A DNA stretch of 46,520 nt from an uncultured virus (IMG/VR IMGVR_UViG_2061766007_000756) (Duplodnaviria > Heunggongvirae > Uroviricota > Caudoviricetes), in the IMG/VR virus record IMGVR_UViG_2061766007_000756; one strand, written 5' to 3'. Position 1 is the first letter of the stretch. Every line of letters begins with the position of its first letter. Made by a program: the position numbers and the translations under genes. Below, piece after piece: positions 1,663 to 45,218 of the stretch. The notes under the pieces are model-generated. The model did not search any database, had not been told where the DNA came from, and saw only the letters and a program-made list of their open reading frames with translations.

Positions 1663-2848
1663 ATGGCAGNNNNNNNNNNNNNNNNNNNNNNNNNNNNNNN
1701 NNNNNNNNNNNGCCGAAGATTAGTTTTATACTTCAAATAATTTAGAAAAATATCCTGATGATGGTAAACTTCCTCAATGTAAAAAGTGCATTACAATGCA
1801 TGTGAATAATTGGGATCCAGCTACATATTTGTGGATTTTACAAGAAGTAGATGTGCCTTACATACCAGATGAATGGAATAAACTTATGGCAACATATGCT
1901 AAAGATAAATCTAAAGTGACTGGTATGACCATTTTAGGTAGATATTTATCTAAAATGAAGTTAAAACAATATAGAGACTATAGATGGAAAGATACAGAAT
2001 TTTTACAAGAACTCGCAAATAAGAAAATTGAAGAAACAATGAAGCGACAGGGTTATGATGCCGAGCAGATTACTACTGCAATTAATAAAGCGACATTTAC
2101 ATTGCCCGATGAAATTGCTGAACCTGTTTATCAAACCGAAGAAGAAAAAACAGAAGAGCTTGAAGATTATTTCGCTCAACAAAGTGGTGCCGATGATGAT
2201 GACCTGGGCGCAGAATTAACTGATGATGATAAAAAGTATCTTCGTTTGAAATGGGGTAAGGCATATAAACCAGAAGAGTGGATTGCACTTGAACAATTAT
2301 ATAATGATATGATGGAGTCTTATGATATTCAATCCGCTGGACATATTGATATTTTAAAGAAGTGTTGCAAGACTTCTCTAAAAGCTGACCAGCTTTTAGA
2401 CATCGGAGATGTCGAAGGCGCACAAAAAATGGTTAAAATGTACGATATGCTAATGAAATCTGGCAAATTCACTGCTGCACAGAATAAAGGAACATCTGGT
2501 GAAGCAGTTGATTCACTTGCTGAATTGTTTGCTATGTGCGAAGAGGATGGGTTCATCCCTAGATATTATGTCGATGGTCCACAAGATAAGGTTGACAGAA
2601 CTTTACAAGATTTACAAATGTATACTAAAAATCTCGTAGAAGAAGAAACCAATTTGAGTAGTTTAATTGAAAGTGCTATGAGACAAATTGAAAAGGATAA
2701 AGAGAAAGAAGCTGAAACAGATGCGGATGCCGCAAATGATGATGACCTTCTTGAACAAGAACTTTTTGAAGAAGAAGCACCAATTAATGATAAAGACTTT
2801 GCCGAATTTTCTGATTGGGAAGAGCAGGAAGAAGCGGAATCAAGTGAG
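1663..2848 (+). CDS. Putative terminase small subunit with N-terminal Cys motif (TAG recoded; stop lies in the N gap)
   Basis: RBS GAGGAGG, ATG 1663. After the gap: AED[TAG 1721]FYTSNNLEKYPDDGKLPQCKKCITMHVNNWDP, in frame with ORF 1796. Lies immediately upstream of terL. Acidic C-tail. Confidence 0.6.
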
Positions 2849-2874
2849 NNNNNNNNNNNNNNNNNNNNNNNNNN

Positions 2875-4614
2875 GCTCTTGCTGATTTACTTGATTTAAG
2901 CCAATCGCGCAGAAAAATTGGTATTTCTGACGAGCGCATTGCTGCAGTTAAACCAGTAGTTAGATAGTATATTGCCTACTGGAGAGAGTACCCTGATATG
3001 TTTGTAGATTTTTTACAAACTGGTAAAGATGGACAAATTCCAGATAATGGATTAAAGTTCTATTTTTATCAAAGGGTATTTTTACGTGCGGCGATGCGCT
3101 ATAAATATGTATACATGGTCTTCCCACGTGCATACTCAAAATCATTTTTATCGGTATTGGTATTAATGTGTCGCTGTATTCTTTATCCAAGATGTAAATT
3201 ATTTGTTACTTCTGGTGGTAAGGAACAAGCTGCGGGTATTGTAAAAGAAAAAGTAAATGAATTATGTACATTGGTTCCAGCACTTGAAAGAGAGCTTGAC
3301 TTGCGGCCAGGTAAAACTCGGTAGAGCAAGGACTATTGCATCTTCGTGTTTAAGAATGGCTCTTACTTTGATAATATTGCGGCCAGAGAAACTTCTCGTG
3401 GTAAGCGTCGTCATGNNNNNNNNNNNNNNNNNNNNNNNNNNNNNNNNNNNNNNNNNATTATTCCTACAATGAATGTTTCTCGTTTGTGTATGGATGGTAC
3501 TTCACATCCAGAGGAAACTTTAAATAAGAGTCAAATATTTGTTACTACTGCTGGATGGAAAGGAACATTTGCATATGATAAATTAATAGTGTTCCTTGTG
3601 CGTATGGTTACTGAGCCTGATAAAGCGTTTATTATGGGCGGTACTTGGCGCATTCCAGTATTGGTTAAACTGTTGGATAAAAACTTTTTATAGGATTTGA
3701 AAAATGATGGGACATACAATGAGGCTTCATTTAGTCGTGAATATGAAAGTAAATGGTCCGGAACTGTTGAAGATGCTTATTTCAATGGCGAGCAGTTTGA
3801 CCGTAATCGCATACTTAAACAGCCAGAATATGAGCACTCTGGCCGATCAAGTGCGCGAAGCTACTATATCATCTCTGCCGATATTGGTAGAAAAGGTTGT
3901 GACTCCGTAGCTACAGTATTTAAAGTAACTCCACAGACTGTTGGATCTGCAATAAAATCTTTGGTCAATATTGATACAAGGAATGATGAGCATTTTGAAA
4001 ATTAGGCGATATGGTTGAAAAAGTTGTATTATAAATATAAAGCACGCAGGCTGGTAATCGACGGTAATGGCGTTGGTTTAGGCTTAATTGACTATATGAT
4101 TAAGCCGCAAGTTGACCCAGATACCGGGGATGATTATCCGGATTTCGGTATTTATGGTGGTACTCAAGATGATGCTGCGCAAGAATATAAGAAATATCGC
4201 ACTAATTCTACTGAACAAGATGCTATATATATTATGAAAGCAAATGCGCCAATCAATACTGAGGCGCACAGTAATGCGTTAGTACAATTGTCTTCTGGTC
4301 GAGTAAAAATGCTTCAAGACGAACGTATTGCTAAACAAAAATTGTTAGGCACAAAAGTTGGTATGAATATGACACCTGAACAGAGGGCAGATTATTTAAA
4401 ACCATTTACCCTAACTTCCATATTAAAAGAAGAAATGATGAATCTCCGTGAAGAAAATGAAGGAGTTAACATTATTTTAAAACAAGCTAATAAAAGCATC
4501 AAGAAAGATAAATTCTCTGCTTTTGAATATGGTTTATATTATATAAAAGAAGAAGAAGAAAGCAAAAAGAAGAAGAAACGCTTTAATGCTAAAGATTGGA
4601 GATTTTATAATTAA
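2875..4614 (+). CDS. terL: Terminase large subunit (start in N gap; 4 in-frame TAG)
   Basis: One frame through TAG at 2965, 3322, 3691 and 4003, ending TAA. ATPase motifs FPRAYSKSF, SGGKEQA, RGKRRH, FVTTAG. Nuclease motifs IISADIGRKGCDS, VIDGNGVG, KDKFSAFEYGL. Confidence 0.92.
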
Positions 4615-4625
4615 GGAGGTATATT

Positions 4626-4982
4626 ATGAGAGCATCAAGAGGAGAAATTAAAATTGAGGAAATTTTAAAAGAAGCTGGATTGATTTTTAAAGAAGAATAT
4701 ATCTTCCCAGATTTAAAAAGTCCAAGGGGCGTTCCACTTCGTTTTGATTTTGTTGTTTTTGATGATGATGGTAATATAGATTTTATTATTGAATATCAAG
4801 GAAAGCAACATTATGAACCTTCTGCCAAATTTGGTGGAGCAAAAGGATTTTATCAACAACAATATAATGATACGCAAAAAAGAAGATTTTGCGCTCTTCA
4901 TGATTTTAAATTGATAGAAATCCCTTATACAGAAGAGAATGAAATTTCTTATGATTATATTATGCATAAAGCTGGATATTAA
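4626..4982 (+). CDS. PD-(D/E)xK-fold (Vsr/DUF559-like) endonuclease
   Basis: SRGEIKIEEIL...LRFDFVV...IIEYQGKQHY...LIEIPY motif series. AAGGAGG RBS, TAA stop, no TAG. Confidence 0.75.
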   Translation: MRASRGEIKIEEILKEAGLIFKEEYIFPDLKSPRGVPLRFDFVVFDDDGNIDFIIEYQGKQHYEPSAKFGGAKGFYQQQYNDTQKRRFCALHDFKLIEIPYTEENEISYDYIMHKAGY

Positions 4983-4994
4983 GGAGGTAATATA

Positions 4995-6752
4995 ATGCAA
5001 GATCAACCAAAAGATCGTCAAACTCTTATTAGAGAAAAAGGGTTTGATATGCTAAATGCACCTTCTTCTGCGTCTGCAATTGAAAATTATGTGAAATTAA
5101 AGCTTGGACCAAAGGCTTACGATAATGCGGTTTTAGATTTACATTATTATGATAAGCTTGATAGAAGAGATTTTCATAATAAAGAATATGTAATTTAGGC
5201 TTTAATTGATAATAACATCCCGCTTTTAAGAGATATTTCTCGCTATTTTTATAGAACAAATGGTATTTACCAAAAGATAGTAAATTACTTTGCCACAACT
5301 TATCGTTATGATTGGTATATGGTACCAGAAATGAAGACTGAGGCATCAATTAGTGAAAATAAAATTATTGCTGATTTTACTAAAACATTAAATTTCTTTG
5401 ATGCTTCTCATATTAAAAAACTTTGTGGTGAGTTTGCGCTCAATGTAATTCGAGATGGTATTTACTATGGATATGCCTATGAAGGGGAAGATAGAATTCT
5501 GATTCAGGATTTACCATTTAGATATTGTCGTTCAAGATTTAAAATTAATGGTGTTCCTNNNNNNNNNNNNNNNNNNNNNNNNNNNNNNNNNNNNNNNNNN
5601 NNNNNNNNNNNNNNNNNNNNNNNNNNNNNNNNNNNNNNNNNNNNNNNNNNNNNNNNNNNNNNNNNNNNNNNNNNNNNNNNNNNNNNNNNNATGCGAGTGC
5701 TTGATTTGTTTCCACCAGAATTTAAAAAAGGTTATTTATTATATAAGCAAGGTAAATTACCAGTTGACGATCCTTTATTGACTATTAATGAACCAGCCAA
5801 NNNNNNNNNNTAAAGGACGTTGGTATTTGCTGGAGCCAGGCTGCGCATTTACATTTTCATTTTTTGGCTCTCATGGATTGCCTTTATTTGTAAATGCCAT
5901 TCCTGCGCTTATTGATTTAGATATGACCCAAGGNNNNNNNNNNNNNNNNNNNNNNNNNNNNNNTTGAAGATTATTGTTCAAAAATTACCGCTTGATAAAA
6001 ATGGTGATTTAATCTTTGACGTTGATGAAGCGCGTGATATTCATAATAATGCTGTGGAAATGCTGCGTAATGCTATTGGTGTTGATGTTTTAACAACTTT
6101 TGCAGATATTGAAGGAATTGATGTTTCTGATGCAAATGCTACAGTTACTGATGATTCTTTAAATAATGCTGAGCGCACTGTTTATAATGCGTTAGGTACT
6201 TCAAAGAATATTTTCAATACTGAAGGTAACTTAGCTTTGGAAAAATCTGTTCTTGCGGATGAAGGATCTTTAAGAGATCTAATTCTCCAATTTGAAATTT
6301 TATTTGATACTATTGCACAAAAGCGTAGTGTTAATAAAAAGAAGTGGAATTTTAGATTTTATATGCTTCATACTACGCAGAATAATTATCAAGCATTATC
6401 AAAATTATATAAAGAGCAAACCCAAGTTGGTTTCTCAAAAATGTTGCCTCAGATTGCTCTTGGTCAGAGCCAAAGCTTCATTTTGAATACTGTATTGTTT
6501 GAAAATGAAGTGTTACACTTGAGTGAGATTATGATTCCTCCACTTATGTCATCTACTATGAATGCAGAAACGCTGCAAGAGTTAGGGAATAGAAAAACTG
6601 GTGGAAATCAAAATCAACAAAATGGAAATTAGAATTTGGGCAATACCAGTCAAACTAAAACCAATGAAAGTCAAGGTACTACGGGAAGACCAAGTAAGGA
6701 AGCTGACCAATTAAGTGACAAAACAATTAAAAATAAAGAATCAATGAGTTAA
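4995..6752 (+). CDS. Portal protein (TAG recoded, N gaps)
   Basis: AAGGAGG RBS. Reads through TAG 5196 (EYVI*ALIDNNIPLLRDISRYFYRTNGIY) and TAG 6630 to GRPSKEADQLSDKTIKNKESMS, TAA 6750-6752. Position after terL, ~580 codons, C-terminal GRP motif common in portals. Confidence 0.8.
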
Positions 6753-6764
6753 GGGAGGATAAGG

Positions 6765-8102
6765 ATGAATACAAGTATTAAGTTAAATACTCCTTGTGAA
6801 TTAATCAATGTGGTTCCTTTGAATCCTTTGATTTCAAAATGCCAAATTAAGGTATGCTATGTTGGCGATCAGCCAAATAGAAATAAAAGTATTATAACCA
6901 AAGAAGTCGCCAAGGAAATGGCCAATTCACTTCCTGGAAGTCCTATTGTAGGTTTTTACAATGAGGCTTCAGCTGACTTCGAAGAGCATAATCGAATTAT
7001 TAAAATTTCAAATGGTAGTTTAAAATTTGAAGATACAACAAGACCTTATGGTTTTGTAGATATGAATGCACGTGTCTGGTTCTAGGATTATTTAGACGGT
7101 GATACAGTGCATACATATATGGTAACTGAAGGTTACTTATGGACTGGACAATATCCAGAAGCAAAAAGAATAATCGAAAAAGGAAATAATCACTCAATGG
7201 AGTTAGATGAACAAAGTTTAGATGGTTCTTGGACATATGACGATAAGAGTGGTATGGAATTTTTCATTATAAATGACGCAATATTCTCTAAATTATGTAT
7301 CTTAGGTGACGATGTTGAGCCTTGCTTTGAAGGCGCGCAAATCACGAAATTTTCATTAGACGATGAATTTAATAATAAAATTTATGCTTTAATGAAAGAG
7401 GTTAAAAAATTGAAAGGAGAGGACAATACAGTGGAAGATATCAAGAAACCCGAAGAGGAAATGATTGATCCTGTTGAAGAAGCAAAGGATCCTGTTTCTG
7501 AGGAAGGAACTGAAGAAGTTGAGGAAGATACTCCTGCTGGCGCTCCTGAAGATGAGCCTGTTGAAGCTGAAGGCGAAAAAGACGATCCTGCGCAGGAAGT
7601 AGACCCTGTTGAAGAGCCTGCGGACGGCGACCCACAAGAGGAAGAAGAGTCTGAAGAGAAAGCCGATGAAGAAGAAAATAAGGACGAAGGCGTTCAATTC
7701 AGTTTAACAGATTTTCAAAATCTACAGGAGAATTATGCAAATCTCGAATCAAGATTTAATGAACTTCAAACTCAGTATAATGAAATGAAGGAATCTTATG
7801 ATTCACTTGTTGAATTCAAGAATACTAAGGATAGAGAAGATAAGCAAAACATGATTGATAGTTTTTATATGTTGAGTGACGAAGAAAAGAAAGACGTCCA
7901 AGACAATATTGATCAGTATTCTCTTGACGAGATTGAAGCTAAGCTTTCTGTCATTTGCGTACACAATAAATTAGATTTATCTGGTAAAGCAAATGATGAA
8001 AATAATCCCGGCACTACATTTAATTTAGATAGTGTAGATGACGATTCCGAGGATGACATTCCAGCATTAGTCAGCGTTCTTCGGAAGAATAGAAAAAATT
8101 GA
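6765..8102 (+). CDS. Prohead protease/scaffold protein (445 aa)
   Basis: ORFs 6765 and 7107 join in frame across TAG 7083 (RVWF*DYLDG), ending TGA. N-terminal globular domain (NRNKS, HSMEL, LCILG, EPCFEGA), acidic linker, coiled coil. Lies between portal and capsid genes. Confidence 0.75.
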
Positions 8103-8125
8103 AAAATTGATAGGAGGAAATATTG

Positions 8126-8812
8126 ATGGCTAAGACACGTTTAGGTAAGGCTACATTTGTAGAGCGTGGATATGGTCAAGTTGAGCCAAATCATCTTTCA
8201 GCTCAGAGAACTGGCCAAGTATATGCCCAGCTTCCTGCCGATCCAGAAATCGAACTCCTGGAGAATGGTCAGTTCGTAAAATATGACTATGCTAAAGGTG
8301 TTGTTGATTTTGATGGTGAAGGCGAATGGATGTTAGTCTTCAATGAAGTAAAAGTCTATCGTGATGGTCAATCCGATTGCGACTTCGCAATGATTAAAGA
8401 TAATTATGTTGCTCGTATTTATAGCCCTATTGATGGTGAAAAGCTTGACAAGCAACTAACTCAGCCTAGAGATTATTCTAAGGTTGTTACTCCCGCAGAT
8501 CCTTATGAGATCGATTCTACTAATAATCCTTTTGCCGCATTATATGATTATAATGGACCAAAGAAGATGAAAGAAAATACCAAGATGGTTCCTCGTGTTT
8601 TGAAGACCAATGTTGGTGATATTTATACTACAAACTGCTTAATGGCTGATTTAGCAAATCCTCCAGCTATTGGTGCTCCTTTCCATGTAGGAGATGAGGG
8701 TTACCTTGTTGCTGGCGCCGGTGAGGGTGGAGTTGATCCTACTTTCCAGGTTGTTAAGGTTTATGATCTTGGTGATCGTCAAAAAGCTGTTAAGTTAATG
8801 AGAATTAACTAA
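8126..8812 (+). CDS. Capsid-associated (decoration/cement-like) protein
   Basis: AGGAGG RBS, no TAG, located between scaffold and major capsid genes. Function from synteny. Confidence 0.55.
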   Translation: MAKTRLGKATFVERGYGQVEPNHLSAQRTGQVYAQLPADPEIELLENGQFVKYDYAKGVVDFDGEGEWMLVFNEVKVYRDGQSDCDFAMIKDNYVARIYSPIDGEKLDKQLTQPRDYSKVVTPADPYEIDSTNNPFAALYDYNGPKKMKENTKMVPRVLKTNVGDIYTTNCLMADLANPPAIGAPFHVGDEGYLVAGAGEGGVDPTFQVVKVYDLGDRQKAVKLMRIN

Positions 8813-8829
8813 TGAAAGGAGAAAAAGCT

Positions 8830-9966
8830 ATGTTATTAAAGACTGAAGATTTTGTAAAGCTTGCAAAGATTGCGGCCAAAGCTAACGCTTCTTCTCCTGT
8901 TGCTTATAGTTTCAATGGAGAAAACTTTAGCTATAATGATGTTCAGGAGACCTTACGTAAGCAATTCGCAGAATTAGCTCCTGATTATCGTTCATACAGA
9001 GAAAATAAGAACACTATTTTCCGTATTATTGAAGAAACTCTTTCCGAAGTTGTTCCAGAAAGAATTAAACAGAACTATGAACAGTTCGCAGAAGTAAAGC
9101 ACTATGCTCAAGGCGACAAGCCTATTTTCCGTCGTAAAACCAACGCTCGCAGTGGCGCACGTGGCAAACAGTTCATTACCCGTGTTGGTTTGGCTGGTAT
9201 TTACGAAGTTTGGAAGCTTGGTTCTGCACAAGAGAGCTTTGAAGTTCCTACATCTGCAATCGGCGGTGCCGCTCAGATCGGATTCGAAGAATTCCTTGAT
9301 GGTCGTGTAGACTGGGCTGAATTAGTAAATATCGTTTATGAAGCCATTGATGAACTCGTATATGAGGAAATCGGTGAAGCTCTTGCAGAAGGTATCAATC
9401 AACTTCCAGCTGCTCACAAGGTGGTTGCCGCTGGTTTTGATGAAGCTGCTTTTGATGCTATGCTAAATTCTGCTAAGATGTATGGTAATGTTACCATTTA
9501 CTGCACAAACGAATTTGCTGTTAAGATGATCCCACAGGAAGCTTGGAGATACACCGAGGCTATGAAGGATGAATTATATCGTACTGGTAAGCTTGCTGGC
9601 TACAAGGGCGAGAAGATCGTTATCCTTCCAAACCAATACAAGAATGCTTTCGAGCAGGTTAAGGTCCTTGATCCAAGTCTTTGCTGGATTATTCCTTCTT
9701 CTGCCGATCAAAAGCCTGTAAAAGTTGCTTTCGAAGGCGACCTATATACAAATGAATTTGAAAACTATGACTGGTCTCATGATATTCACGTATATGAGAA
9801 GGTCGGTGTTGTTTGCATGATGGATAATGCTATTCATGTATACAAAGATACCAGCCTGAGCCAGAATGGCGTATTTAATCTTAAGGATACTGTCGCTCAT
9901 CATGTTATCGTTGATAACATTGCTGACGCAAATGGTGGATCGAACTCGGGAAACCAGCAGCCGTAA
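8830..9966 (+). CDS. Major capsid protein (378 aa)
   Basis: AAAGGAG RBS before ATG 8830. Size, position and codon bias typical of high expression. No TAG. Followed by a frameshift extension and a terminator. Confidence 0.85.
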   Translation: MLLKTEDFVKLAKIAAKANASSPVAYSFNGENFSYNDVQETLRKQFAELAPDYRSYRENKNTIFRIIEETLSEVVPERIKQNYEQFAEVKHYAQGDKPIFRRKTNARSGARGKQFITRVGLAGIYEVWKLGSAQESFEVPTSAIGGAAQIGFEEFLDGRVDWAELVNIVYEAIDELVYEEIGEALAEGINQLPAAHKVVAAGFDEAAFDAMLNSAKMYGNVTIYCTNEFAVKMIPQEAWRYTEAMKDELYRTGKLAGYKGEKIVILPNQYKNAFEQVKVLDPSLCWIIPSSADQKPVKVAFEGDLYTNEFENYDWSHDIHVYEKVGVVCMMDNAIHVYKDTSLSQNGVFNLKDTVAHHVIVDNIADANGGSNSGNQQP

Positions 9967-9987
9967 CAGCAAGTAAGCTTGCTACCG
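9948..9987 (+). promoter_or_regulatory. Programmed -1 ribosomal frameshift signal
   Basis: G GGA AAC heptamer (9948-9954) in the capsid frame, followed by hairpin AGCAAG-TAAG-CTTGCT. Both are conserved in the copy at 11238. Confidence 0.8.
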
Positions 9988-10343
9988 CACCTAATGATGC
10001 CAATAAGACTCAGTCTCAGGCCAATCAGGATGCTGTTACAGTAACACAAAATGGTAATACTATTACCATTACCGGTAGCCTTGATGCATTGAATAGTTTT
10101 GCTTCTACAAATCCTGCACAAGGCAGTGGTAAGTGGATTGGTTTAGATTTAAATACTGGACTTGACACCATTGTTGGTTCTACATGGGGAGATTCTTATG
10201 AATTAACTCAAGATGATGCTGATGAAGCAGCTTCTGTAGGACTAGGTGCTGGCCATATTATTTTCTGGACCAAGGCCGAAGATTTACCAAAAACCATTAA
10301 GGTAAATGGTGAATCCTACACTGTTGAATTTGTTGAAGGCTAA
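9948..10343 (+). CDS. -1 frame C-terminal extension of the major capsid protein (~130 aa)
   Basis: Open from GGG AAA CCA GCA GCC GTA ACA... to TAA 10343, in frame with ORF 10089. No ATG or RBS of its own. Confidence 0.78.
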   Translation, partial: GKPAAVTASKLATAPNDANKTQSQANQDAVTVTQNGNTITITGSLDALNSFASTNPAQGSGKWIGLDLNTGLDTIVGSTWGDSYELTQDDADEAASVGLGAGHIIFWTKAEDLPKTIKVNGESYTVEFVEG

Positions 10344-10376
10344 TTCATAATTGTTAATTTAATATACTTTTGAGAT

Positions 10377-10418
10377 AGGGGAGAATGGGGAAGTTCCCCT
10401 TCTCCCCTTATTTTGTTT
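10377..10418 (+). terminator. Rho-independent terminator after the capsid extension
   Basis: AGGGGAGAA-t-GGGGA agt TCCCC-TTCTCCCCT stem, then TATTTTGTTT. Confidence 0.8.
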
Positions 10419-10440
10419 ATGAGAAAAAGGAGAAATTGAA

Positions 10441-11052
10441 ATGTCTGATAATAGAAAATTTATTGTCACCAACAGAAGTGCCAGCCGTGTACATTATTCT
10501 GTGCCGGAATTGGGTATTAAAAGTCGCGATTTCCAACCTGGGGAAAGTAAGCAGATTACTTATGCTGAACTTGAAGGTTTAAGCTATATCCCTGGTGGTA
10601 AGGAATTGATTAGAGATTATTTGCTCATTAAAGATATACCAGTGAGAGATGAATTCGTTGGACATGTAGAGCCTGAATATAATATGACTAGTGCTGAGGT
10701 TAAAGATCTGATTTTGCATGGGTCATTAGATGAATGGCTTGATGCTTTAGATTTCGCTCCAGAAGGAGTGATTGACCTAATTAAGACTTTATCTGTTGAA
10801 TTACCTCTTACTGATACAAGAAAAATGGATGCCTTTAAAGAAAAGAAGGGATCCGATTTGGCAAGAATGATTCGCGCCAAACAAGAAGAAGAGGCGGAAC
10901 GTGCGGCAGCCCAGGCGCAAAGCGCCCAAGAGCCANNNNNNNNNNNNNNNNNNNNNNNNNNNNNNNNNNAAGCAGAAGTTCCGCAAAATCCTGCAAGAAG
11001 AACTTCTGGTTCAAAATATAAGGTAGTAAGTCAGGGGACGACAACAAAGTAA
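10441..11052 (+). CDS. Hypothetical head-module protein
   Basis: AAAAGGAG RBS, 203 aa, Ala/Glu/Gln-rich tail ending KYKVVSQGTTTK. No visible TAG. Confidence 0.75.
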   Translation: MSDNRKFIVTNRSASRVHYSVPELGIKSRDFQPGESKQITYAELEGLSYIPGGKELIRDYLLIKDIPVRDEFVGHVEPEYNMTSAEVKDLILHGSLDEWLDALDFAPEGVIDLIKTLSVELPLTDTRKMDAFKEKKGSDLARMIRAKQEEEAERAAAQAQSAQEPXXXXXXXXXXXXAEVPQNPARRTSGSKYKVVSQGTTTK

Positions 11053-11073
11053 TCGCAATTGAGGAGGCGTTTT

Positions 11074-12314
11074 ATGGGAACTAAATTCACCGATNNNNNN
11101 NNNNGCATGATGGATAATGCTATTCATGTATATAAAGATACCAGTCTTAGCCAGGAAGGTGTATTCAATCTTAAGGATACTGTCGCTCATCATGTTATCG
11201 TTGATAACATCGCTGACGCAAATGGTGGATCGAACTCGGGAAACTGATGCAGGTAACAGCAAGTAAACTTGCTACCGCACCTAATGATGCCAATAAGACT
11301 GAGTCTCAGGCTAATCAGGATGCTGTTACTGTATCACAAAATGGTAATGTAATTACTATTTCCGGTAGCCTTGCAGGATTAAATAGCTTCGCTTCTACTA
11401 ATCCTGCACAAGGTAGTGGAAAATGGATTGGTTTAGACTTAAATACTGGTCTTGATACTATTGTAGGCGCTAAATGGGGCGATTCTTACACTATGACTCA
11501 AGATGATGTAGATGAGGCTGCTTCTGTCGGACTNNNNNNNNNNNNNNNNNNNNNNNNNNNNNNNNNNNNNNNNNNNNNNNNNNNNNNNNNNNNNNNNNNN
11601 NNNNNNNNNNNNNNNNNNNNNNNNNNNNNNNNNNNNNNNNNNNNNNNNNNNNNNNNNNNNNNNNNNNNNNNNNNNNNNNNNNNNNNNNNNNNNNNNNNNN
11701 NNNNNNNNNNNNNNNNNNNNNNNNNNNNNNNNNNNNNNNNNNNNNNNNNNNNNNNNNNNNNNNNNNNNNNNNNNNNNNNNNNNNNNNNNNAAATTACTGA
11801 TGATATGTATATGGAATTAACTCCATAGGATACTGTTAAAGATTTGCAGCGACTTTTAATAGATGCTATTCCTGGATTTGAATTTCCAAGAGTAGATTTA
11901 GAAGACTATAATATTGAAGTTGTGCGTATGCGCGAAGATGAAGTGACCGAAGATGATTTTATCATAGGTGTTATTTGGAATGAATTAAGCGAAGATTTCG
12001 ATCCGCAAGTTCCAGATGTTCTTGTAGAACATTCTAGTTTTGCAAATGAATTAACTTCAGAANNNNNNNNNNNNNNNNNNNNNNNNNNNNNNNNNNNNNN
12101 NNNNNNNNNNNNNNNNNNNNNNNNNNNNNNNNNNNNNNNNNNNNNNNNNNNNNNNNNNNNNNNNNNNNNNNNNNNNNNNNNNNNNNNNTATAAAAGGAGA
12201 AGACCGAGTACTGAGTATGATTTAGCCAGTGGAAAAACGGAAGGACCTTTCGCTTCTAACTGGGATGTGCTCAAGAATGGTGTTTATACCTATGGCCGCG
12301 GCATTAGAGGATAA
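11074..12314 (+). CDS. Putative head-tail adaptor (interrupted in the scaffold by a misplaced duplicate and gaps)
   Basis: GAGGAGG RBS, MGTKFTD at 11074. Resumes at 11791 as ITDDMYMELTP[TAG 11826]DTVKDLQRLL, ends TAA 12314. Part of the missing middle (DFKMTSQANHLSKLL) is visible in the duplicate at 13099. Confidence 0.6.
11105..11533 (+). repeat. Diverged duplicate of 9815-10243 (capsid 3' end plus extension); probable strain allele
   Basis: Constant offset of 1290 nt, mostly synonymous differences, N gaps on both sides, inserted inside another gene. Confidence 0.85.
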
Positions 12315-13903: not shown

Positions 13904-13922
13904 GTAAAAGGAGATAGTGCTT

Positions 13923-14537: not shown

Positions 14538-14541
14538 TTAA

Positions 14542-34800: not shown

Positions 34801-36775
34801 GGTAGATTAATTGGATATGATTTTTATTTACGAATGGCAAAATCGGGACATGCAGTTACTGAATAGGCAGGGACAGAAGGTGATAATTTATCACTTACGG
34901 CAACAGATCAATAGGGTATGATTGTTATTGATTCTGGCAATGATACTACTCCATTTATTATTAAACATACTGGCGCAGGATCTCATTTCTTTAAGATATT
35001 TTGGGACGGTTCTATTGTTGCTACTGCTGGATTAATTGGCGGCTGGAGAATTAATAGTAATAGTATCTGGACCAATGGTACAAGTGGCGATGCTCCAACG
35101 GCAAGTAGTACTAGATTAAGTTCTACCAATTTTAATAGAGCATTAACTGGTTTTACAAAAGCTAATTATCCTNNNNNNNNNNNNNNNNNNNNNNNNNNNN
35201 GTAGTAAATTTGGTGTTGCATCTGATGGTACATTGTATGCTAGAAATGGTTATTTCCATGGCAATATTTATGCAGAAAGTGGTACTTTTAATGGAACTGT
35301 TTATGCAAGCGCTGGATCATTTACTGGTAATATCTATGCTAGTTACATAGAGACTTCTGGTGGCGGTAGAATTGCTGGTTGGACAATTGGAGCAAATGGT
35401 TCTGGTCTTTATAATGGTTCTGTTGGTATGAGTCCGTCTGGTCATGTATTTTATGCAGGTGGTAATTTTTACGTTACTGATGCTGGATATATTTATGCTG
35501 CTGCTGGCGGTCAAATTGGTAATTGGGATTTGACAGACAGCGGATCACTAGTATCTCATGGCACTTCAGAGGGGTCCGCTGGTGGATCTGGAATTTTATC
35601 TGGTGGTACTATTAAAGGTGGTACAATACTTGGTGGTACATTAGATATTGGACCAGCATCTTCAGTGCCAACTCAAGGAAATGGAAATTTTAGTGTTAAA
35701 TCTGATGGTTCATTTGGTGTTAATAACAATAAATTTAAGGTTGCTAACGATGGTAAAGTTAGTGTTAATAATAATTTTATTATTAATACTGATGGTAGCT
35801 TTTCTGTAAATAATAATTTTGTAGTAAATTCTGCTGGCGAAATACAAAAAATGAGTGGAGAAACAATAAAAACTATAGAATTTACGAATCTTGTTACTGT
35901 AGACAGCAACTTTAAATTTTTAGGTTTAGTTGGTACATCATATCGTCCTTATGCTAGAGCTGGTAGTGAGGTTCAAAGATGGGTATATGCAAGTAGTAGT
36001 AATACTTATAATGGTGTAGATATGCCAAGTATTGCTTTAGGATGGACCACTGTTGGTGTTTATGTAACAACTACAGAAGCTTATAATAATGCAGGAACCA
36101 CTGAGGGAGACCCTAAGTATTATGTACGTATTCCTACTTATATTAGTCATAATTTACGTTATAAGTGGCGGACTATGATAACTCCTCCACCAGAAGATGA
36201 TACTGCACAAGATACACAGTTATATTTAAATAATATAGCTATGTATTCAGGAGGTCGTGTTTCTCTTAAAGCTTTTGTTGCTGATCAAACTTCTAGTACT
36301 GGAAGTGGAACAGGCTGTTTTAGTAAAGGTACAAAAATTATGATGTGTGACAAAAGTTATAAAAATATTGAAGATATTCAAGTTGGTGACAATGTTTNNN
36401 NNNNNNNNNNAGACTTGTGAATCAAGCAATGTTATTACTGTTAATTCTTATAAAAATTGTTTAGTATATAATATTATTTTAGAAAATGGTCAAATAATTA
36501 AAGTTAGCGATTGTCATCCATTTATGACTGAAAATGGATGGGGCGCTATTGATATAAATAAAGCTTTAATTTACCATGGAGTATCTGCAATTAAATTGGA
36601 TAAAGGTTTATATATTCAACAATATGATAAATTAGTCAAAATAATAGATATAGTAAAAACTAATAAATATGAAACTTTATATGATATCGGAGTAAATCAT
36701 GCGGAACATACTTATATTGCAGATAATTGTGTTGTCCATAACGTTGTAACTTGGACTTAGATTGGTAAAGCATAA
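28899..36775 (+). CDS. Giant tail tip/central fibre-like protein (~2,600 aa) with C-terminal Hint domain
   Basis: AAAGGAG RBS. The ORF fragments join through TAG or N gaps; 33261-34718 was hand-translated and has no TAA/TGA. Gly-rich beta repeats (AGLIGGWRI, GRIAGWTI, GQIGNWDL, FGVASDGTLYARNG). Ends TAA 36773-75. A hidden gene boundary inside a gap cannot be excluded. Confidence 0.72.
36316..36742 (+). other. Hint (Hedgehog/intein) autoprocessing domain, BIL-like
   Basis: Block A CFSKGTKIMMCDKSYKNIEDIQVGDNV, block B IKVSDCHPFMT, blocks F/G ETLYDIGVNHAEHTYIADNCVVHN. About 140 aa, no endonuclease insert, +1 residue Val. The frame change falls at a short N gap. Confidence 0.9.
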
Positions 36776-37183: not shown

Positions 37184-39969
37184 ATGGCGGGAAAATTATA
37201 TCCGCCTTACATTGATGGAAAAGTGCCTGCTTTTTGCGGAACGGAACTTGTTGTTCCGTTCCGCCATAACAGAGCTGTTAGTCAATTNNNNNNNNNNNNN
37301 NNNTAAAATAAAAACAGTTTCTACTAATGAATGGGTTTGGACCATTCAAATACCAGAAGGTGAAGATAATTATATTTTACATGATGAAAAAACTGGACAA
37401 TATTCTGTGGTATTTAATTTAGCAGAGAAATATAGAGGAAGAAAAGATCCAGATCTTAATGATTTTAAGCCCTACTATCAATGGTTGATAGAAGGGCTTT
37501 ATTATAAGATTCAATTAGCATATATTGATAATTCTGGTGAGGTAGGTTATTTTTCAGATGTAGGCGTAACTAAATATACTTCGAAACCAACTGTTACTAT
37601 TGATGGTTTAAATTCTTATGGTGTTAATAATAGCTTATATGATTATGTTGGCGTATATAGTCAATTAAATGGCGATACGGCAGAAAGAGCTTATTCGTAT
37701 AATTTTACAATTTATGATTAGGCTGATAATGTATTTATAACATCAGGAGAGCAAATTCACAATAGTAGTTTAGATACAGAAATTTATGAATCTAAAGACG
37801 AGTTTTACTGTAATAAAGAGCTGAAACCAAATGAGATTTATAAATTAAAATATACAGTTACTACAATTAATGGTTTGATTGCGGCTAGCCAAAGTTATTT
37901 AATTATGAAGAAAGATACTGTGCGTCCATCTATTAATGCAACTTTACATGCTGAAGTTGATTATAATGATGGTTTTATTGCTTTATCTTTAATTCCTAAT
38001 GATGATAGTTTCTATAGCGGTAATTTTGCTATTGCTCGCTCAAGTTCAAAAGATAACTTTTCAACTTGGGATGAAATCTGCAAATTTAGTTTAAATAGAG
38101 AATCACCTTTGCGTAACTTATTTAAAGATTTTACAGTTGAACAAGGAATTAGATATTGTTATTCATTACAACAATATAATACACGCGGTTTGTACTCTAA
38201 CAGAATGTTATCTGAAACTTTATATGCAGATTTTGAAGATATGTTTTTATACGATGGAAAACGTCAATTAAAAGTTCGTTTTAATCCAGGAGTATCATCA
38301 TTTAAAAATGATATTCTTGAGTCAAAACAAGATACGATTGGAGGACGTTATCCATTTATTTTTAGAAATGGAAATATTAAATATAAAGAATTTCCAGTTA
38401 CTGGTCTAATCTCCTATTTAATGGATGATTAGGCTTATTTTTTGCCAAAAGAAAATTTGGGTGCGCTCGAGCGTGAAACCACTGACCTGGTCTCTGATAA
38501 CGTAAGAGCCGAGCGCATGTTTAAATTAGAAGTAATGGATTGGTTAAATGATGGTAACCCAAAACTTTTTAGGTCTCCAACAGAAGGAAATTATGTTGTT
38601 AGATTATTAAATGTTTCATTGTCTCCTAATACAACAGTTGGACGTATGTTACATCAATTTTCAGCTACTGCTTACGAAGTTAGCGATACTAGTTTTGCTT
38701 CTTTAGAGGCTTTTGGCTTATTTACTGCGCCAAATCTTGAGACAATGATTATGCGCTTTAAAACAATTCAGCTTAATACGATAAGTATGCCAACTTGGGT
38801 ATGGGATGAGGAGCATCCTTCTAAGACATATTTAAATAATCCTCCTTCTATTACTGAAATTAATGCTCATAGCTCAAATGTACTTGCCAATCTGCCGATT
38901 GGCTATTTAGGTGTGTTTGAAGGGGTGGCGCCAGATACAATTTTTGGATTACGTTTTGAAAAAACTTCTGGTGAAAATTTAATTGAATATATTAGAATTG
39001 GAGAAACTCAAATTTATCAAATTAATGCTGGTGATAATAAACTTGCTGCTATTTATCCAATTTGGACTCCTAATATTATAAAAGGGTCTGCGGCAGACAG
39101 AAAATTTGATGNNNNNNNNNNNNNNNNNNNNNNNNNNNNNNNNNNNNNNNNNNNNNNNNNATTTCTAATTTTGATGTAGAAGATAGAATGACTCAATTCT
39201 TTGGTTTACATGATAATATTATTGAAGAATTAGAAGATATTCGTACTTCTGTTGGTAAATTATATTGGCTTAAATTTCAAGTTCGTGATATTAAAGAAAT
39301 TTATATTGATAAAACTGATACAATTAATCGCGGCAATATTTATTCTGATGCTTATAATCAAGTAGGATTGACTTGGAGCGAAATTTTACCAACAAGTGTA
39401 TATGCAGATAATTCGGTTTCTCCAGTAAGATATTATAGCGGTAAAGATATTTTAGATGGTAATACTACTTATCTTGTTGGTGGTGTTGCATATGCTAAAA
39501 TGCCAGCAATAATGATTGATAATAATAGTTATTATTGGACAGAAGAAACATATGATAATTGGGGTAGTTCTGGTACATCAGTTAATAGATTATATAAATT
39601 NNNNNNNNNNNNNNNNNNNNNNNNNNNNNNNNNNNNNNNNNNNNNNTTACCAATTTAGATAATGTAACAAGTATTTCAATTGGGCGCATGATTATGGTAG
39701 ATTGTTATTATCAATTGGTATCAAAATCTTATTCTATTGAAGATGAAGATCCAGACCTTGAAGAAGTAAAACGTGCTTGGATTACACAAAATGAATTATT
39801 CTTTGATGCGGTAAGAAGTGAAGAAATTGCTGAATCAACCAAAAATACAGAAACTGGTAGTTCTGGTGAGCAATATATAAGAGACCAGTATGCTATTGTA
39901 TAGGTAACTTATACAGATTATATCACTGCATTAAGAACTAAATTAACTTTAGCAGAACAGGGGGGGTAA
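37184..39969 (+). CDS. Putative distal tail/baseplate protein with beta-sandwich domains (TAG recoded)
   Basis: GAGGAGGAG RBS, MAGKLYPPYIDG. Motifs FKDFTVEQGIRYCYS, DTIGGRYP, WLNDGNPKLFRSPTEGN. Ends TAA 39967-69. Confidence 0.65.
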
Positions 39970-39972
39970 TTT

Positions 39973-42900
39973 ATGTTATATAGTGAAGAGTTTTTAAAAC
40001 GATTAGATGAACATCGAGAGAAAACTATTTATGCAAAAATTATCTCTCTTGACTTAGAAGAAAATCCAATAGAACAAGTAGAGGGTACTGTTACTTCAGG
40101 TTCAGTTAATGTGGACGGCACTAGTGCCGTCCGCAGAACTTGTTCATTATAGATGGTAACTGAAGATATAAAAATAAATGAGTATTATTGGGGTCTTAAT
40201 ACCAAATTTAAGCTAGAAATTGGTATTGAAAATAAAATTGATACTAATTATCCTAAAATTATTTGGCTTAAAATGGGAACCTATGTAATAACTTCATTTA
40301 GCGTTAATTATACCACTAATACCGCAAGTATTTCTTTACAAGGTAAAGATAAGATGTGTTTATTAAATGGCGAAGTTGGTGGCGTAATTAATGCATTAAC
40401 TGATTTTGGTACTTATGATTTTTATGATGCTGAAACTGGTATTACTACAAATTATAAACTACCAATTAAACAAATATTATGGGATGCAGTTCATACTTAT
40501 GCTAATGAACCATTTCATAATATTATATTAAATGATTTAGATGAATTAGGATTAGAATTATTAGAATATCAATATGACACTCCATTATATTTAATTAAAA
40601 TAGCTGGTACAGATGAATATTTACATCCAATTATTGGACATTTAGATGTATGGGTTGGAGCCCATAAATATGATATTGGAGATAGTGAACATATTATATA
40701 TGATAATTTAATAAGTTCTATGATAAATAACAATGAGCCGGCTACATAGTTTAGATTGCAAGAAACTGTTCCAGATGGTACAGAACCAATATTATATCAA
40801 GCCGCAAAAGTAGAATATGGCTAGACAGCAGGATATCACACCTGTGATTTAGTATATGCTGGTGATTTAATCGCAAATATTGGTGATTCTGTTACATCAG
40901 TATTTGATAAAATTAAAGCTATGCTTGGTTAGTTTGAATATTTTTATGATTTAGATGGAAGATTTGTTTTTCAACGTCAAAAATCATTAGTAAATACTGT
41001 CTGGACTCCACAAAGACGAGATGGAGATAATGAATTATATGTTGAAGCATTAGCTTTAGCAAGTAATTCAATGTATAACTTTAAAGGAAATATTCTTTTA
41101 AGTTCTATTCAAAATAGTCCTAATTTAAATAATTTAAGAAATGACTATACTGTATGGGGTAGACGTAAAACTGCTAGCGGTGGAGAAATTCCAATTCATA
41201 TGCGCTACGCTATTGATAATAAGCCATNNNNNNNNNNNNNNNNNNNNNNNNNNNNNNNNNNNTGGACTACATTATCAGAAGCTGAAGTTGAAGCAGAAAA
41301 TGAAGGTAAAAAACATCGTTCTATAAGAGCTGAAATTGAAGAACGTATGGCGAATTTTCAAAAGAATCCAAATTTATATCCTAATGCATGGCAAGAAATT
41401 GTGCAAGAAAATCCTTGGTGGCATGTTCAAGAATGGGCAGAATATTATGCCATTTTATCTGGCGGCACTCCTCCAGGAAATACTCACCCTTATCATGAGA
41501 TGAGATATATAGCAAAAAGTGTCGCTAATAATATGACACAATTTACTCGCTATTGGCCAGGTTTACGGTTGCGTTCAACAACATGGACTGTCGTAGATGA
41601 GGATATTGCTAAATTTAAGAATGGCGGAAATTATCCTTTACCTTATACATCAGCTCAAGCTGTTGCAATTTATCGTTGTAAAGACCCAAATGATGGGGTT
41701 GAATTTGTAGCATATGATTCTCACTCTGGATGCGTTCATACATATGGTGAATGGTTGTCAACTGCACAATATGTAAATGGATGTGTAGTTAATGGCCATA
41801 CATATGACCCTTTTGATCCTAACTATCCATGGCATTTATTACCAAGTCCAGGTAGTTATGTAGATGGTATGCATAGTAAAACCTTTTTAGACCAAATGAG
41901 AACTAAATATGGATTATATAGAGTTGATGTTTATTGCTATGACCCTGAAATTCCGGAGAAATTAAAAGAGGATTTTATTTCATAGTTAGAAGCACAATAT
42001 GAATATGTCGATCCATATGAAGGTCATTACAAATATGAAATGGACTGGCGTGAAATAATTTATAGAATGGCTATAGACTATCGTCGTTATAATCATGATG
42101 ATGATTTTGAAGTGCGCCTGGCCGCAAACAACACTCCTTTATACCCTCGTGGTGTTACAGGATATGAATAGTATTATACAGATTTAGAGGGCTTTTGGAG
42201 ATAGTTGTATTATCCTGCTTTTGATGATGAAGAACAAAAAAAGCAATTAGAATATCAATTTACTCTATGGAGAGACATTAAAAATTTACAAGAAAAAAAA
42301 GATATATATGTTAAAGGCGTCTATAAACCAGTAGGCCAAAAAGTGAAGTCATTAGCAACGGAATTAGAAGAAAATGGTAAAGCTTATTATAGAGATACTG
42401 CAATGGGTAAATCATATTATNNNNNNNNNNNNNNNNNNNNNNNNNNNNNNNNNTACTTTTGTAAATAATTATGAGAGTAAATCATGGCCTTGTTTAGGTT
42501 CAACAATCTCAGAAGAAAAATTTATTAAATATGTTAATGCTGGTATATTATATACAAGAGAAATGCCTTCTATTAATACACTGTATATTCGTTATAATCG
42601 TCCAGAAGGATCGGATGAGATTTATCCATACTTAGAAATTTATAATTACAAGTCATCTGATGCGCCATTGGCAGAAGGGGAATCTGCGGCCAGTCTAGAT
42701 AACATAACTCATTATATTAAAGTTGTAAATGCTAGCGATCCATAGAATCCAACTTATGTACCAATTACTGAGAGAGCAATTTCATTAGAAGCTAAACTTG
42801 GTAGTTATACATTAATAGAAGAGAGTGCTACTGCATATAATGAGGCGCAAAATACATTAAATACGCGATCTGATATTTATACAGCATTAGATGAATTAAA

Positions 42901-43935
42901 GTTACAAAATCAATATATTCCTGCTAATGATGAAACATTATTAGGAATTAAAACACAAGCACAAGGTGATAAATGGTTTTTGGAAAATGGTTCTTTAACT
43001 AATCTATGGGCTTATTGTAATGGTCAATCGTTGTTAGCCACGGGTCTAACAAATGTTACTCAATAGAAAAANNNNNNNNNNNNNNNNNNNNNNNNNNNNN
43101 NNNNNNNNNNNNNNNNNNNNNNNNNNNNNNNNNNNNNNNNNNNNNNNNNNNNNNNNNTTTTCTGATTATGTTGTTGAACATGATTATAAAAAAGGCACAT
43201 TAGGCGGTACGCCAACCTTAGATAATGCTTTAATTTATGATGATACAAATTTATATTGTATGACAGATANNNNNNNNNNNNNNNNNNNNNNNNNNNNNNN
43301 NNNNNNNNNNNNNNNNNNNNNNNNNNNNNNNNNNNNNNNNNNACACTACTGGTACAAGATTGCCAACATTAAGAAAAACTTCTATTCATTATTATATTGC
43401 CTTTACTAATTTCTACGATAAAACCGCAGATTTAAAGTATCGGTATTGGAATAAAGATGTTTTTGATGCTCCAGAGTCGCTTAACTTTTGGTTTGATTTT
43501 TTAACTGGCGATGGAGAATTAAGACAATTTACTACACAAGCTATTGGAGATAGGCCAAAAGCTGTGAATGAGAATACCATAAAATCTATTTATTATAGAG
43601 ATACTCCGAAGATAATTTTTATAAGTGCTGAAAAGTTTGCTTCGGAGGAACACAAGACTGGATATAATTATTTCATTATGAAAGATGGTTATGATAATAT
43701 GTTTTCAATTTCTTCTCAAGGAATTGATTGCAAAAATCGTATTGATGAATTAATATATCAATATTCTTATTGTACTGAAAGTGTAACTTTACAATCTATT
43801 CCTATCTATTATTTAGATGTAAACAAAAGAATACATGTGTATGATGATAAATCTGGAATTGATGGCGATTATGTTGTTTCAAAGATTTCATTCCCACTTC
43901 AGTATAATGGAATNNNNNNNNNNNAAATTCTGTAA
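39973..43935 (+). CDS. Putative baseplate hub/Tal-like tail protein (TAG recoded; end approximate)
   Basis: MLYSEEFLKRLD...SGSVNVDGTSAVRRTCSL[TAG 40150], LQGKDKMCLLNG, FEYFYDLDGRFVFQ, RNDYTVWG, PIYYLDVN...GDYVVSKISFPL: the layout typical of hub proteins. Confidence 0.68.
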
Positions 43936-43956
43936 CAGAGAGAGAGGAGTAATAAT

Positions 43957-44298
43957 ATGGCTAGATTGGTAAAACAGTTTAGATATTATGGTGAGACAAG
44001 CCCACTTAATTACCCTGAAGGTGTTACGTATGCTGCGCTCGCCACAGGTAATATTTTTTCAAAAACTCCTGCAATCACTCAATTAGGAATTCAAGCAGAT
44101 CCTGACTTAAAATTCTATGTCAATAATAGTACAGATCCTATTTATGTTGGGGCGACTGGGATTTACGAACTTGACCTCTAGGGTTTAGGAACTATTTCTT
44201 CAATTCGCATTGATAGAGATAGTTTACGAAGTATTAATTATGAGACTAAAAGAAATTCTCTTATGATTGATATTATTTATGAAGGAGCTAGTTCTTAA
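43957..44298 (+). CDS. Hypothetical tail-region protein (113 aa)
   Basis: GAGGAG RBS. Reads through TAG 44179 (IYELDL*GLGTISSI) to TAA 44296-98, 2 nt before the next ATG. Confidence 0.75.
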
Positions 44299-44300
44299 TT

Positions 44301-45218
44301 ATGAGTTTTTATGGAAATGTTACTTATTATTTAAGCAATGCTTTCAATAAGATTGTTTACAGAAATGCTGGATCTGCTTCTGGTAGCAATGCTTCAGTTG
44401 ATAGCAAAGCAAGCCCCGGCATCCCTGCTTATGAGTATGGGTTAAATCCTCGTAATCGCAAGGATGAAACAATTTTGGAAACAGGTAACAAATGGATTGT
44501 GTTTGCCGATCCAGAAGGAACTGTACAAAATAATTAGATTAAAATCTTCCATCAAACCGTTAGATCTAATACGGCTGATGTAAGCGCATCTCCAGCTGTT
44601 TTGGAAAATGCAGAAAATCCTACTACTTTGTCTTTTGGCTCTATACTAAGCTTACCTACTATTACATATGATAATGCTGGACATATTGTAACAACTGGGG
44701 CGGTTTCTTATAAATTGCCAATACCACAAGGTGAAGAGGAAATTGATGCAGCCGAAGATAAACTTGCTTATTTAAGCTATTTATTAATTGGCACAGCAGA
44801 CCCAGATGGAACTGTTCCAGATCCTATTCCAAGTAATTACCATCCTTATTCTTATTGGATTATGCAAAATAAAAATAATATTGGGCCTTGGAATATTGGT
44901 AATGGAACATATCAAGACAAAGAGTCTTTAGCAGATACTGTTCATGAATTACTTTACAGAATTGGTCTTATGACTAAAACTGTTAATCCTAATTATCCAG
45001 GAGAAAATGAAAGTGAATTCCGCTATTCTTGGGTTGATGAAAGTGATCCTAATTTAAGATATAGAGATGGGTCAATTTTACAAAAAGTTGGTTATGCTGA
45101 TAATGCTGCGGCTGTTACTCTTGAATATGCAAGAGAAAATAGACGTAAATTAAATATGGTAATTGATGCAGTTAATACTAAACTTGGATATACTATTCCA
45201 CAATTGCCAGAAAATTAA
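44301..45218 (+). CDS. Hypothetical tail/fibre-associated protein (305 aa)
   Basis: ORFs 44301 and 44601 are in frame across TAG 44535. Motifs GNKWI and ITYDNAGHI. Confidence 0.7.

Follow-up and report, generated by a model that had tools for sequence, protein, structure and literature searches.

Glutamine as the Probable Meaning of TAG, a Sense Codon in the Virion Genes of a Ruminant-Gut Siphovirus

We have analyzed a 46,520-nucleotide (nt) stretch of DNA from an uncultured virus of the Caudoviricetes (IMG/VR record IMGVR_UViG_2061766007_000756), called the window throughout, and find that TAG is a sense codon in it and that only UAA and UGA terminate translation. Comparison with relatives makes glutamine clearly the best reading of the codon. 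The window itself (32.3% GC, with 2,115 undetermined bases in 43 N blocks) appears from its gene content to be the head-and-tail, or virion, gene block of a large ruminant-gut siphovirus, and we regard it as very probable that this phage reads UAG as glutamine through a mechanism that its relatives suggest.

Results

TAG Is a Sense Codon in the Window

As a measure of coding density, we took the cover of the window by stop-to-stop open reading frames (ORFs) of at least 200 amino acids under alternative sets of stop codons. Under the standard bacterial code (code 11) the cover is 48.0%. Treating TAG as sense, as in code 15, raises it to 86.8%, whereas the gain is small when TGA is freed, as in code 4 (51.7%), and freeing TAA gives 59.2%. 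The number of ORFs of at least 300 amino acids changes in parallel, from 8 under code 11 to 19 with TAG as sense, compared with 9 for TGA and 12 for TAA, and the longest ORF grows from 502 to 1026 amino acids once TAG is read through. Within 42 gene segments, trimmed at the N blocks, there are 106 in-frame TAG codons alongside 528 CAA and CAG codons, with no TAA and no TGA. Among the gene ends, 25 of 31 are TAA and 6 are TGA, and none is TAG.

An initial annotation, made from the sequence alone, had proposed that essential genes are broken only by in-frame TAG, that they resume in the same frame with no new ribosome-binding site, and that true ends are TAA or TGA. These proposals are borne out. 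A Shine-Dalgarno (SD)-like core lies near 17 of 104 TAG sites (16%), compared with 1384 of 10144 background in-frame positions (13.6%); the same core is found upstream of 17 of 29 mechanically chosen starts. Because it occurs at TAG at about the background frequency, we see no re-initiation signal there. Two genes free of gaps illustrate the point as the annotation had described them: 14542-15273, with TAG at 14704, 14740, 14800, 15028 and 15046, and 6765-8102, with a single TAG at 7083. The list of interrupted genes needs one caveat. Large terminase (TerL), portal and tape measure are indeed broken by TAG, but the names "protease" and "tail tip" are not confirmed by the families concerned (PHROG 3313 and PHROG 32343, respectively), both of unknown function. 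Together, the density gain on freeing TAG, the absence of TAG from gene ends and the conserved homologue columns described below support the conclusion that TAG is a sense codon in the window.

The Same Sequence Occurs in Other Studies

The N-free segment 13525-17178 was found, wholly or partly, in 20 runs of 14 studies among the matches listed, of which up to two may be the source itself. Contigs were examined from four runs, an RNA library among them, that belong to four other studies. These contigs cover 13525-16725 in pieces no longer than 1,331 nt that differ little from the window, and of the 40 differences examined, out of 78, none affects a TAG codon. Over 14760-15680 one contig matches the window letter for letter, three TAG codons included, and another does so over 14854-15267, with two. 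The check is strong, not exhaustive, and a TAG change in some strain is not fully excluded by it. The contigs of the four runs leave 16819-17178 uncovered, a gap that proves nothing. The contigs of two runs, X3 and X5, diverge from the window after 16725 and 16727 and continue with unlike sequence, so the gene at 16693-18057 looks strain-variable.

Glutamine Is the Best Reading of TAG

Relatives were retrieved as DNA with the capsid protein as query; 80 of 325 IMG/VR relatives were kept, and 40 further loci came from genome bins. Classed by ORF cover, the 121 loci comprise 76 that are TAG-recoded, 24 that are TGA-recoded, 14 that use the standard code and 7 that are unclear. The window proteins, with TAG written as X, were aligned to these loci by tblastn, and the opposing codon was read in each column. 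Opposite window TAG, the standard-code and TGA-recoded loci contribute 247 cells, in which glutamine leads and glutamate comes second (Q 107, E 50, K 15, S 13, A 10, G 10, the rest fewer). Columns 4003 (in TerL), 7083, 12788 and 14740 are all glutamine in these kin, and column 19915 is glutamine in 13 of 14 of them. In TAG-recoded kin the same five columns are mostly TAG or glutamine, the other residues being five threonines at 14740 and six alanines, one glutamate and one threonine at 19915. Site 4003 is glutamine in 4/4 standard-code loci, in 12/12 TGA-recoded loci, in the standard-code relative described next and in Enterococcus phage EF1; column 7083 is glutamine in 13/13 TGA-recoded loci, and in TAG-recoded loci it is TAG 19 times and glutamine 7 times. 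EF1, a cultured phage with the standard code, aligns at only five window TAG sites, with glutamine at 4003 and N, E, E and D at the others.

The nearest standard-code relative is G013:C4 (loci L149, L190 and L191; C4 below), which has the capsid protein most similar to that of the window, with a major capsid protein (MCP) identity of 86-87%. C4 is syntenic with the window at a nucleotide identity of 66-84%, and TAG is a true stop at 2 of its 19 long ORFs, that of the capsid gene included. Over 6253 aligned codons, at 68.8% identity, C4 meets 26 window TAG codons with 12 glutamines, every one of them CAA, followed by E 3, A 3, D 3, S 2, R 1, N 1 and T 1; in the gene at 14542-15273 it has CAA at 14740, 14800 and 15028. 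As a control, ordinary window glutamine codons meet glutamine in C4 in 63% of 248 cases, whereas glutamate codons do so in 4% and lysine codons in 3%.

Counted by site, glutamine is the majority residue at 13 of the 42 TAG sites at which a standard-code or TGA-recoded relative aligns, ahead of E (6), N (5) and K (4). The site-weighted log-likelihood is -102.8 for glutamine, compared with -125.5 for glutamate, -131.5 for histidine and -139.5 for serine, and glutamine is best in 1994 of 2000 bootstraps over the 42 sites. The glutamine assignment of the initial annotation is thus upheld by both the bootstraps and the CAA codons of C4. The converse comparison is consistent with it: of 2470 cells with a TAG codon in a TAG-recoded relative, 1326 stand opposite window glutamine and a further 171 opposite window TAG, just as TGA codons of TGA-recoded relatives stand opposite window tryptophan in 174 of 231. 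Within the aligned parts, standard-code loci and TGA-recoded loci are free of in-frame TAG, as TAG-recoded loci are of in-frame TGA.

Relatives Point to a Phage Suppressor tRNA

How UAG would be decoded is suggested by the closest complete relatives. One, G001, is complete at 180,778 bp with terminal repeats, shares 83% MCP identity with the window, and carries 33 tRNA genes and a tmRNA; a second, G002, is 171,974 bp long and has 23 tRNAs. Each has exactly one tRNA(CUA). Their own TAG codons (loci L002 and L007) stand opposite window glutamine or TAG in 36/46 and 42/59 cells, respectively. A tRNA(CUA) is also present in G005, G006, G007, G023, G028, G031, G032 and the described phage phAss-1. 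Searches for the release-factor domain RF-1 (PF00472) and for the domain of glutaminyl- and glutamyl-tRNA synthetases (GlnRS/GluRS; tRNA-synt_1c, PF00749) gave no hit in any of five relatives (G001, G002, G006, G009 and phAss-1), with positive controls. The result agrees with the published account of phAss-1 (PMC10607447), in which suppressor tRNAs come with no dedicated synthetase.

Because the relatives carry tRNA(CUA) and show no RF-1 or GlnRS/GluRS domain, the scheme that we favor combines a phage tRNA with charging by the host. The phage would encode a tRNA(CUA) in a tRNA cluster elsewhere in its genome; host enzymes would charge this tRNA with glutamine; and the charged tRNA would compete with host release factor 1 at UAG. 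Under this scheme UAG would be translated as glutamine with neither a phage release factor nor a phage GlnRS.

Weighing the Alternatives

Several observations weigh against glutamine inserted by a phage tRNA. Some concern the residue. TAG columns are less conserved than glutamine columns, with a glutamine majority at 13/42 sites compared with 170/329 CAA/CAG control sites. Most TAG sites in the tail module are variable and say little: when 27 of them were aligned with seven relatives, the standard-code kin gave D 5, Q 4, V 4, E 4 and S 3 among 22 residues. If TAG is sense with another meaning, glutamate is the runner-up. It occupies 50 of the 247 cells, is the majority residue at 6 of 42 sites, and fills columns 3322 and 11826 in all aligning standard-code and TGA-recoded kin. 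Serine, leucine or tyrosine is hinted at in a different way, by the tRNAs themselves. The tRNA(CUA) of G001 measures 89 nt and that of G002 94 nt, each with a variable-region hairpin, and in ordinary bacterial tRNAs a long variable arm is the mark of a Ser, Leu or Tyr species.

We considered and rejected the arm as a mark of serine. The two tRNAs are otherwise class-I cloverleaves, with stems of 7 bp (acceptor) and 4 bp (D), G73 and a weak pair at 1-72, features that we take to be Gln- or Trp-like under tRNA identity rules. Other class-I tRNAs of the family are long-armed too (Ile-UAU 93-95 nt, Trp 87, Cys 84, Thr 85), which argues that the arm is a quirk of the family's tRNAs and not an identity mark. 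Moreover, L002 and L007 belong to genomes in which the long tRNA(CUA) is the only one, and what is listed opposite their TAG codons includes no serine. Similar long-arm suppressors occur elsewhere in the family: phAss-1 has one of 91 nt beside an ordinary 75-nt tRNA(CUA), G031 and G032 have one of 90 nt, and the TGA-recoded G009 has the same type of tRNA, 95 nt long, with anticodon UCA and a 5' half closest to the Gln and Trp tRNAs that these phages carry. Five TAG-recoded genomes thus have the anticodon CUA, and a single TGA-recoded genome has UCA. The genes lie at 2729-2817 in L112, 15061-15154 in L114, 443-533 in L123, 413-507 in L127 and about 1503-1592 in L197 and L198, and the four sequences used for training our own model are 69-76% identical to each other. 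With the likelihood of glutamine well above that of glutamate and of serine, and glutamine best in nearly every bootstrap, we consider a residue other than glutamine highly unlikely.

The decoder, too, could come from elsewhere. UAG might be read as glutamine by a suppressor from the host or a co-infecting element, or in a host for which UAG is already sense. ARAGORN finds no tRNA gene in the 46,520-nt window, and G004, a complete TAG-recoded genome, has eight tRNAs of which none is a tRNA(CUA); the inference of a phage tRNA is therefore not safe for every member of the family. No bacterial host is known to read UAG as glutamine, which counts against decoding by the host. Three complete or near-complete genomes, the TGA-recoded G008 and G010 and the TAG-recoded G004, yielded no suppressor tRNA by Rfam, ARAGORN or our own model, and BLAST of the G009 tRNA(UCA) against G008 and G010 gave only T-arm-sized matches and no suppressor. 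Such absences are not peculiar to this family: of the TAG-recoded genomes studied by Borges et al. (bioRxiv 10.1101/2021.08.26.457843), only 40% are reported to have a detected suppressor. Against an external decoder stand the tRNA(CUA) genes of G001 and G002, the closest complete relatives, and of the eight further relatives that include phAss-1, and we hold such a decoder to be very unlikely. Finally, the TAG codons might be damage or artifact, either nonsense mutations in a decaying prophage or errors of assembly or sequencing. Nothing speaks for this idea except that stops are present at all when code 11 is applied, and it is already contradicted: the in-frame stops are exclusively TAG (106, against no TAA or TGA), the interrupted genes are conserved and full-length relative to those of relatives, TAG positions are shared with L002 beyond chance (7 versus 2.6 expected, p = 0.004), and the contigs of the four other studies show no TAG-codon change among the differences examined. 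We give it almost no weight. Glutamine inserted by a phage tRNA(CUA) accordingly remains the explanation that we prefer.

TAG Is Unevenly Distributed among the Genes

TAG makes up 16.7% of glutamine-like codons overall, and its share differs along the window: 20 of 208 in the head genes (618-16672), compared with 86 of 426 from 16693 on (Fisher p = 6e-4). CAG is common in the head genes and nearly absent from the tail genes, as if TAG had replaced CAG in the latter. The capsid gene, its upstream neighbor at 8123-8812 and a tail-tube candidate at 15295-16275 have TAG at none of their 37 glutamine-like codons; these three, taken as the most abundantly expressed, were grouped after the data had been seen. 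The skew fits either a cost of read-through or a role in late-gene timing, and the data do not separate the two. Head-module glutamine columns are TAG in 11 of 151 cases for the window, against 36 of 151 for L002 and 42 of 114 for L007, which makes the window a lightly recoded member of its family, with siblings whose TAG use is two- to five-fold higher.

A Standard-Code Sister Is Nested among Recoded Phages

In a capsid tree of 119 rows, the window, the TAG-recoded L002 and the standard-code L149 of C4 form a trio (support 98) within a clade of eight rows, seven TAG-recoded and one standard (support 100). This clade is sister (99) to one of 17 TGA-recoded rows and 1 standard-code row, and the tree implies at least 12 code changes over 112 labeled rows. 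A head-module tree (4574 columns, 21 rows) gives the arrangement ((L003, L007), (L149-standard, (window, L002))) with 100% SH-aLRT on each branch, and it places a second standard-code pair, L030 and L036, among TAG phages.

Phages of the different TAG branches have more TAG positions in common than expected by chance. The excess is present not only between the window and L002, as given above, but also between L002 and L003 (15 versus 8.0, p = 0.001) and between L002 and L007 (15 versus 9.7, p = 0.012). Such sharing tends to favor a recoded ancestor, from which the standard-code L149 would have lost the recoding, so C4 may represent a reversion of the code, as opposed to repeated gains in the TAG branches. 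Shared ancestry of TAG sites as CAG could mimic the excess. CAG use in C4, at 6/45 glutamine codons in TAG-prone columns and 9/33 in never-TAG columns, gives no clear signal of direction.

The tRNAs suggest how the two recodings could be connected. The same odd suppressor scaffold has the anticodon CUA in G001, G002, G031, G032 and phAss-1 and UCA in G009, and classical E. coli genetics is reported to have shown that Trp and Gln tRNA identities are interconvertible through the anticodon. One scaffold might therefore serve both codes, with an anticodon change alone moving a lineage between TAG-to-Gln and TGA-to-Trp. That the window sits at a three-way junction of codes that could show how phage codes flip, by reversion and through a shared tRNA scaffold, is a doubtful proposition as yet. 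It nonetheless comes with a natural comparison set, consisting of a standard-code sister with an intact 3266-amino-acid tape measure, TAG-recoded siblings and a TGA-recoded sister clade, and such a set would allow the order and cost of code changes to be studied.

Gene Content of the Window

Every sizeable or modeled gene of the window lies on the + strand. A sigma-factor-like gene at 618-1805 (PHROG 5767, E 1e-21), with two in-frame TAG codons, is followed by the large terminase at 2998-4614 (PHROGs 24618 and 15503), with three (3322, 3691 and 4003). Between terminase and portal lies a free-standing, TAG-free HNH homing endonuclease gene at 4626-4982 (PHROG 559 and 9084, E ~1e-26); EF1 likewise has a gene annotated as an HNH homing endonuclease in the region before its capsid gene. 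The portal gene at 4995-6752 matches PHROG 2739 in both halves and has two in-frame TAG codons. Its reading frame is 2 up to the N block at 5801-5810, 0 up to that at 5934-5963, and then 2 again. In C4 the portal is one uninterrupted 538-amino-acid ORF, so the N blocks are not length-preserving modulo 3, and the frame breaks at them are masking artifacts, not effects of TAG.

Downstream of the portal are the gene at 6765-8102 (PHROG 3313), with its single TAG, the TAG-free neighbor of the capsid gene at 8123-8812, and the MCP gene at 8812-9966 (PHROG 4088, E 5e-60), which has TAG at 0 of 16 glutamine-like codons and ends in TAA. A -1 frame is open over 9927-10343 and overlaps the last 13 codons of the capsid gene. 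The canonical slippery heptamer G_GGA_AAC (9948-9954) is in register with the capsid frame, and slippage by -1 would extend the capsid protein by about 130 amino acids. The tail of the capsid gene and the domain that follows it appear twice, at 9930-10340 and 11105-11527. The capsid 3' end recurs in the 17 nt that precede 11247, and the ORF at 11247-12314 begins with a protein sequence nearly that of the -1 extension. Both 11105-11527 and the capsid end match the same stretch of C4, 9426-9830; the second copy could reflect either a duplication or strain variants assembled together.

The block continues with a virion structural protein at 13917-14537, recognized by a PHROG match, and the gap-free gene at 14542-15273, which matches PHROG 4051 over its full length (E 8e-32) and carries the five TAG codons listed above. 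A second virion structural protein at 15295-16275, the tail-tube candidate, is TAG-free (PHROG 2729, E 4e-56), with TAG at 0 of 11 glutamine-like codons. The most TAG-dense gene, 16693-18057, has no family match; 12 of its 28 glutamine-like codons are TAG (P_high 0.001). The tape measure occupies 18835-28782, with 31 in-frame TAG codons and a length of about 3,300 amino acids. PHROGs 4211 and 34405 match at both its ends, and Pfam identifies PhageMin_Tail (E 7.7e-27) while adding little else in the window. Since the C4 tape measure is a single 3266-amino-acid ORF under code 11, we read the pieces in the window as one gene.

Large tail or fiber proteins fill 29792-36775, with 28 in-frame TAG codons. 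At 36300-36775, the C-terminal end of a tail-fiber-like protein, a Hint- or intein-like domain scores below threshold, with 28.5 bits for Hom_end_hint (cut-off 32.1) and 27.7 for Intein_splicing (cut-off 35.8). Distal tail or baseplate-like genes at 37212-45218 (PHROGs 30026 and 32343, with a weak match to 1887) contain a further 14 in-frame TAG codons; within them, 39973-42468 matches PHROG 32343 and, weakly, a "tail protein" family.

Discussion

The window is best explained as part of a large siphovirus of the ruminant gut. Its sequence occurs in ruminant gut runs, the genomes of its close kin measure 160-200 kb, and both the very long tape measure and the distant kinship with large siphoviruses of Enterococcus, Lactococcus and Bacillus agree with the siphovirus proposed by the initial annotation. 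A Bacillota host with the standard code, also proposed there, is plausible. We did not accept a host from metagenomic bins, because whole phage contigs are easily mis-binned; the 40 related loci came from bins labeled Clostridia, Lachnospiraceae, Erysipelotrichaceae, Tenericutes, Treponema, Bacteroidales, Methanobrevibacter and others. The practical consequence of the recoding lies in annotation. Under code 11 the terminase, portal, tape measure and tail genes fall into fragments, and code 15 is needed to recover them. For biology the case is confirmatory, adding a ruminant-gut lineage to the TAG-to-Gln phages. Slight added interest comes from the nested standard-code sister and from the long-arm suppressor scaffold that the TAG and TGA branches share. 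A limited search of the phage-recoding literature did not meet the term "variable arm," which is a weak basis for calling these suppressors undescribed.

By homology and gene order, the window is most probably a distant member of the phAss-1 group (the "Caudoviricetes code 15 clade" of NCBI). It shares homologous TerL, MCP and tape measure genes with that group, a very long tape measure and a common gene order; its MCP matches that of phAss-1 by tblastn at 43.7% identity over 89% of the query, and 2724 head-module codons align at 43% identity. Phage phAss-1, with the proposed Phassvirus group, is described by Babkin et al. 2023 (PMC10607447) as TAG-to-Gln recoded; the same paper reports a monophyletic group that includes standard-code members such as EF1 and PMBT10, tape measures of more than 3,100 amino acids, two or three tRNA(CUA) genes and no dedicated synthetase. 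As in the window, TAG is glutamine in the TerL, portal, tape measure and tail genes of phAss-1, and its tape measure (3149 amino acids) is of a length similar to the one described here. Its single long-arm tRNA(CUA) is a likeness to G001 and G002. It differs from the window in size, composition and habitat: phAss-1 is 136 kb, has 42% GC in the stretch compared and comes from the human gut, whereas the window has 32% GC, has close kin of 160-200 kb and occurs in ruminant gut runs. The Enterococcus phages EF1 and VRE9, also large siphoviruses, have head and tail genes that are homologous to those of the window and syntenic with them (34% identity for the MCP, and 50% over 1899 aligned codons) but, unlike the window, use the standard code.

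Mixing of codes within a family also has precedent. According to Borges et al. (bioRxiv 10.1101/2021.08.26.457843), four of eight gut phage clades hold codes 11, 15 and 4, and within Agate the average nucleotide identity between a standard-code phage and a TGA-recoded one can exceed 90%. The clades described there (Jade, Sapphire, Agate and others) are large animal-gut phages with TAG-to-Q or TGA-to-W recoding in structural genes, and they resemble the family of the window in combining different codes in one clade and in carrying suppressor tRNAs in part of their genomes. They differ in one respect: release factor 2 is reported for two TAG-recoded Agate phages, whereas our search of five relatives found none. 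Code-15 crAss-like and Lak phages likewise use TAG as glutamine in late genes within standard-code hosts, and for crAss-like phages metaproteomic proof of TAG-to-Gln is reported (PMC9523058); these phages have unrelated virion architectures and Bacteroidota hosts, and our searches saw no sequence relation to them. A 2026 survey describes code 15 with CUA suppressors in rumen and gut jumbo phages (PMC13037316). Given phAss-1, the clades of Borges et al. and the jumbo-phage reports, both this kind of system and the mixing of codes at family level are already known. TAG-to-Gln recoding is therefore real in the window but well described in gut phages, and what the window adds to them is a lightly recoded lineage from the ruminant gut.

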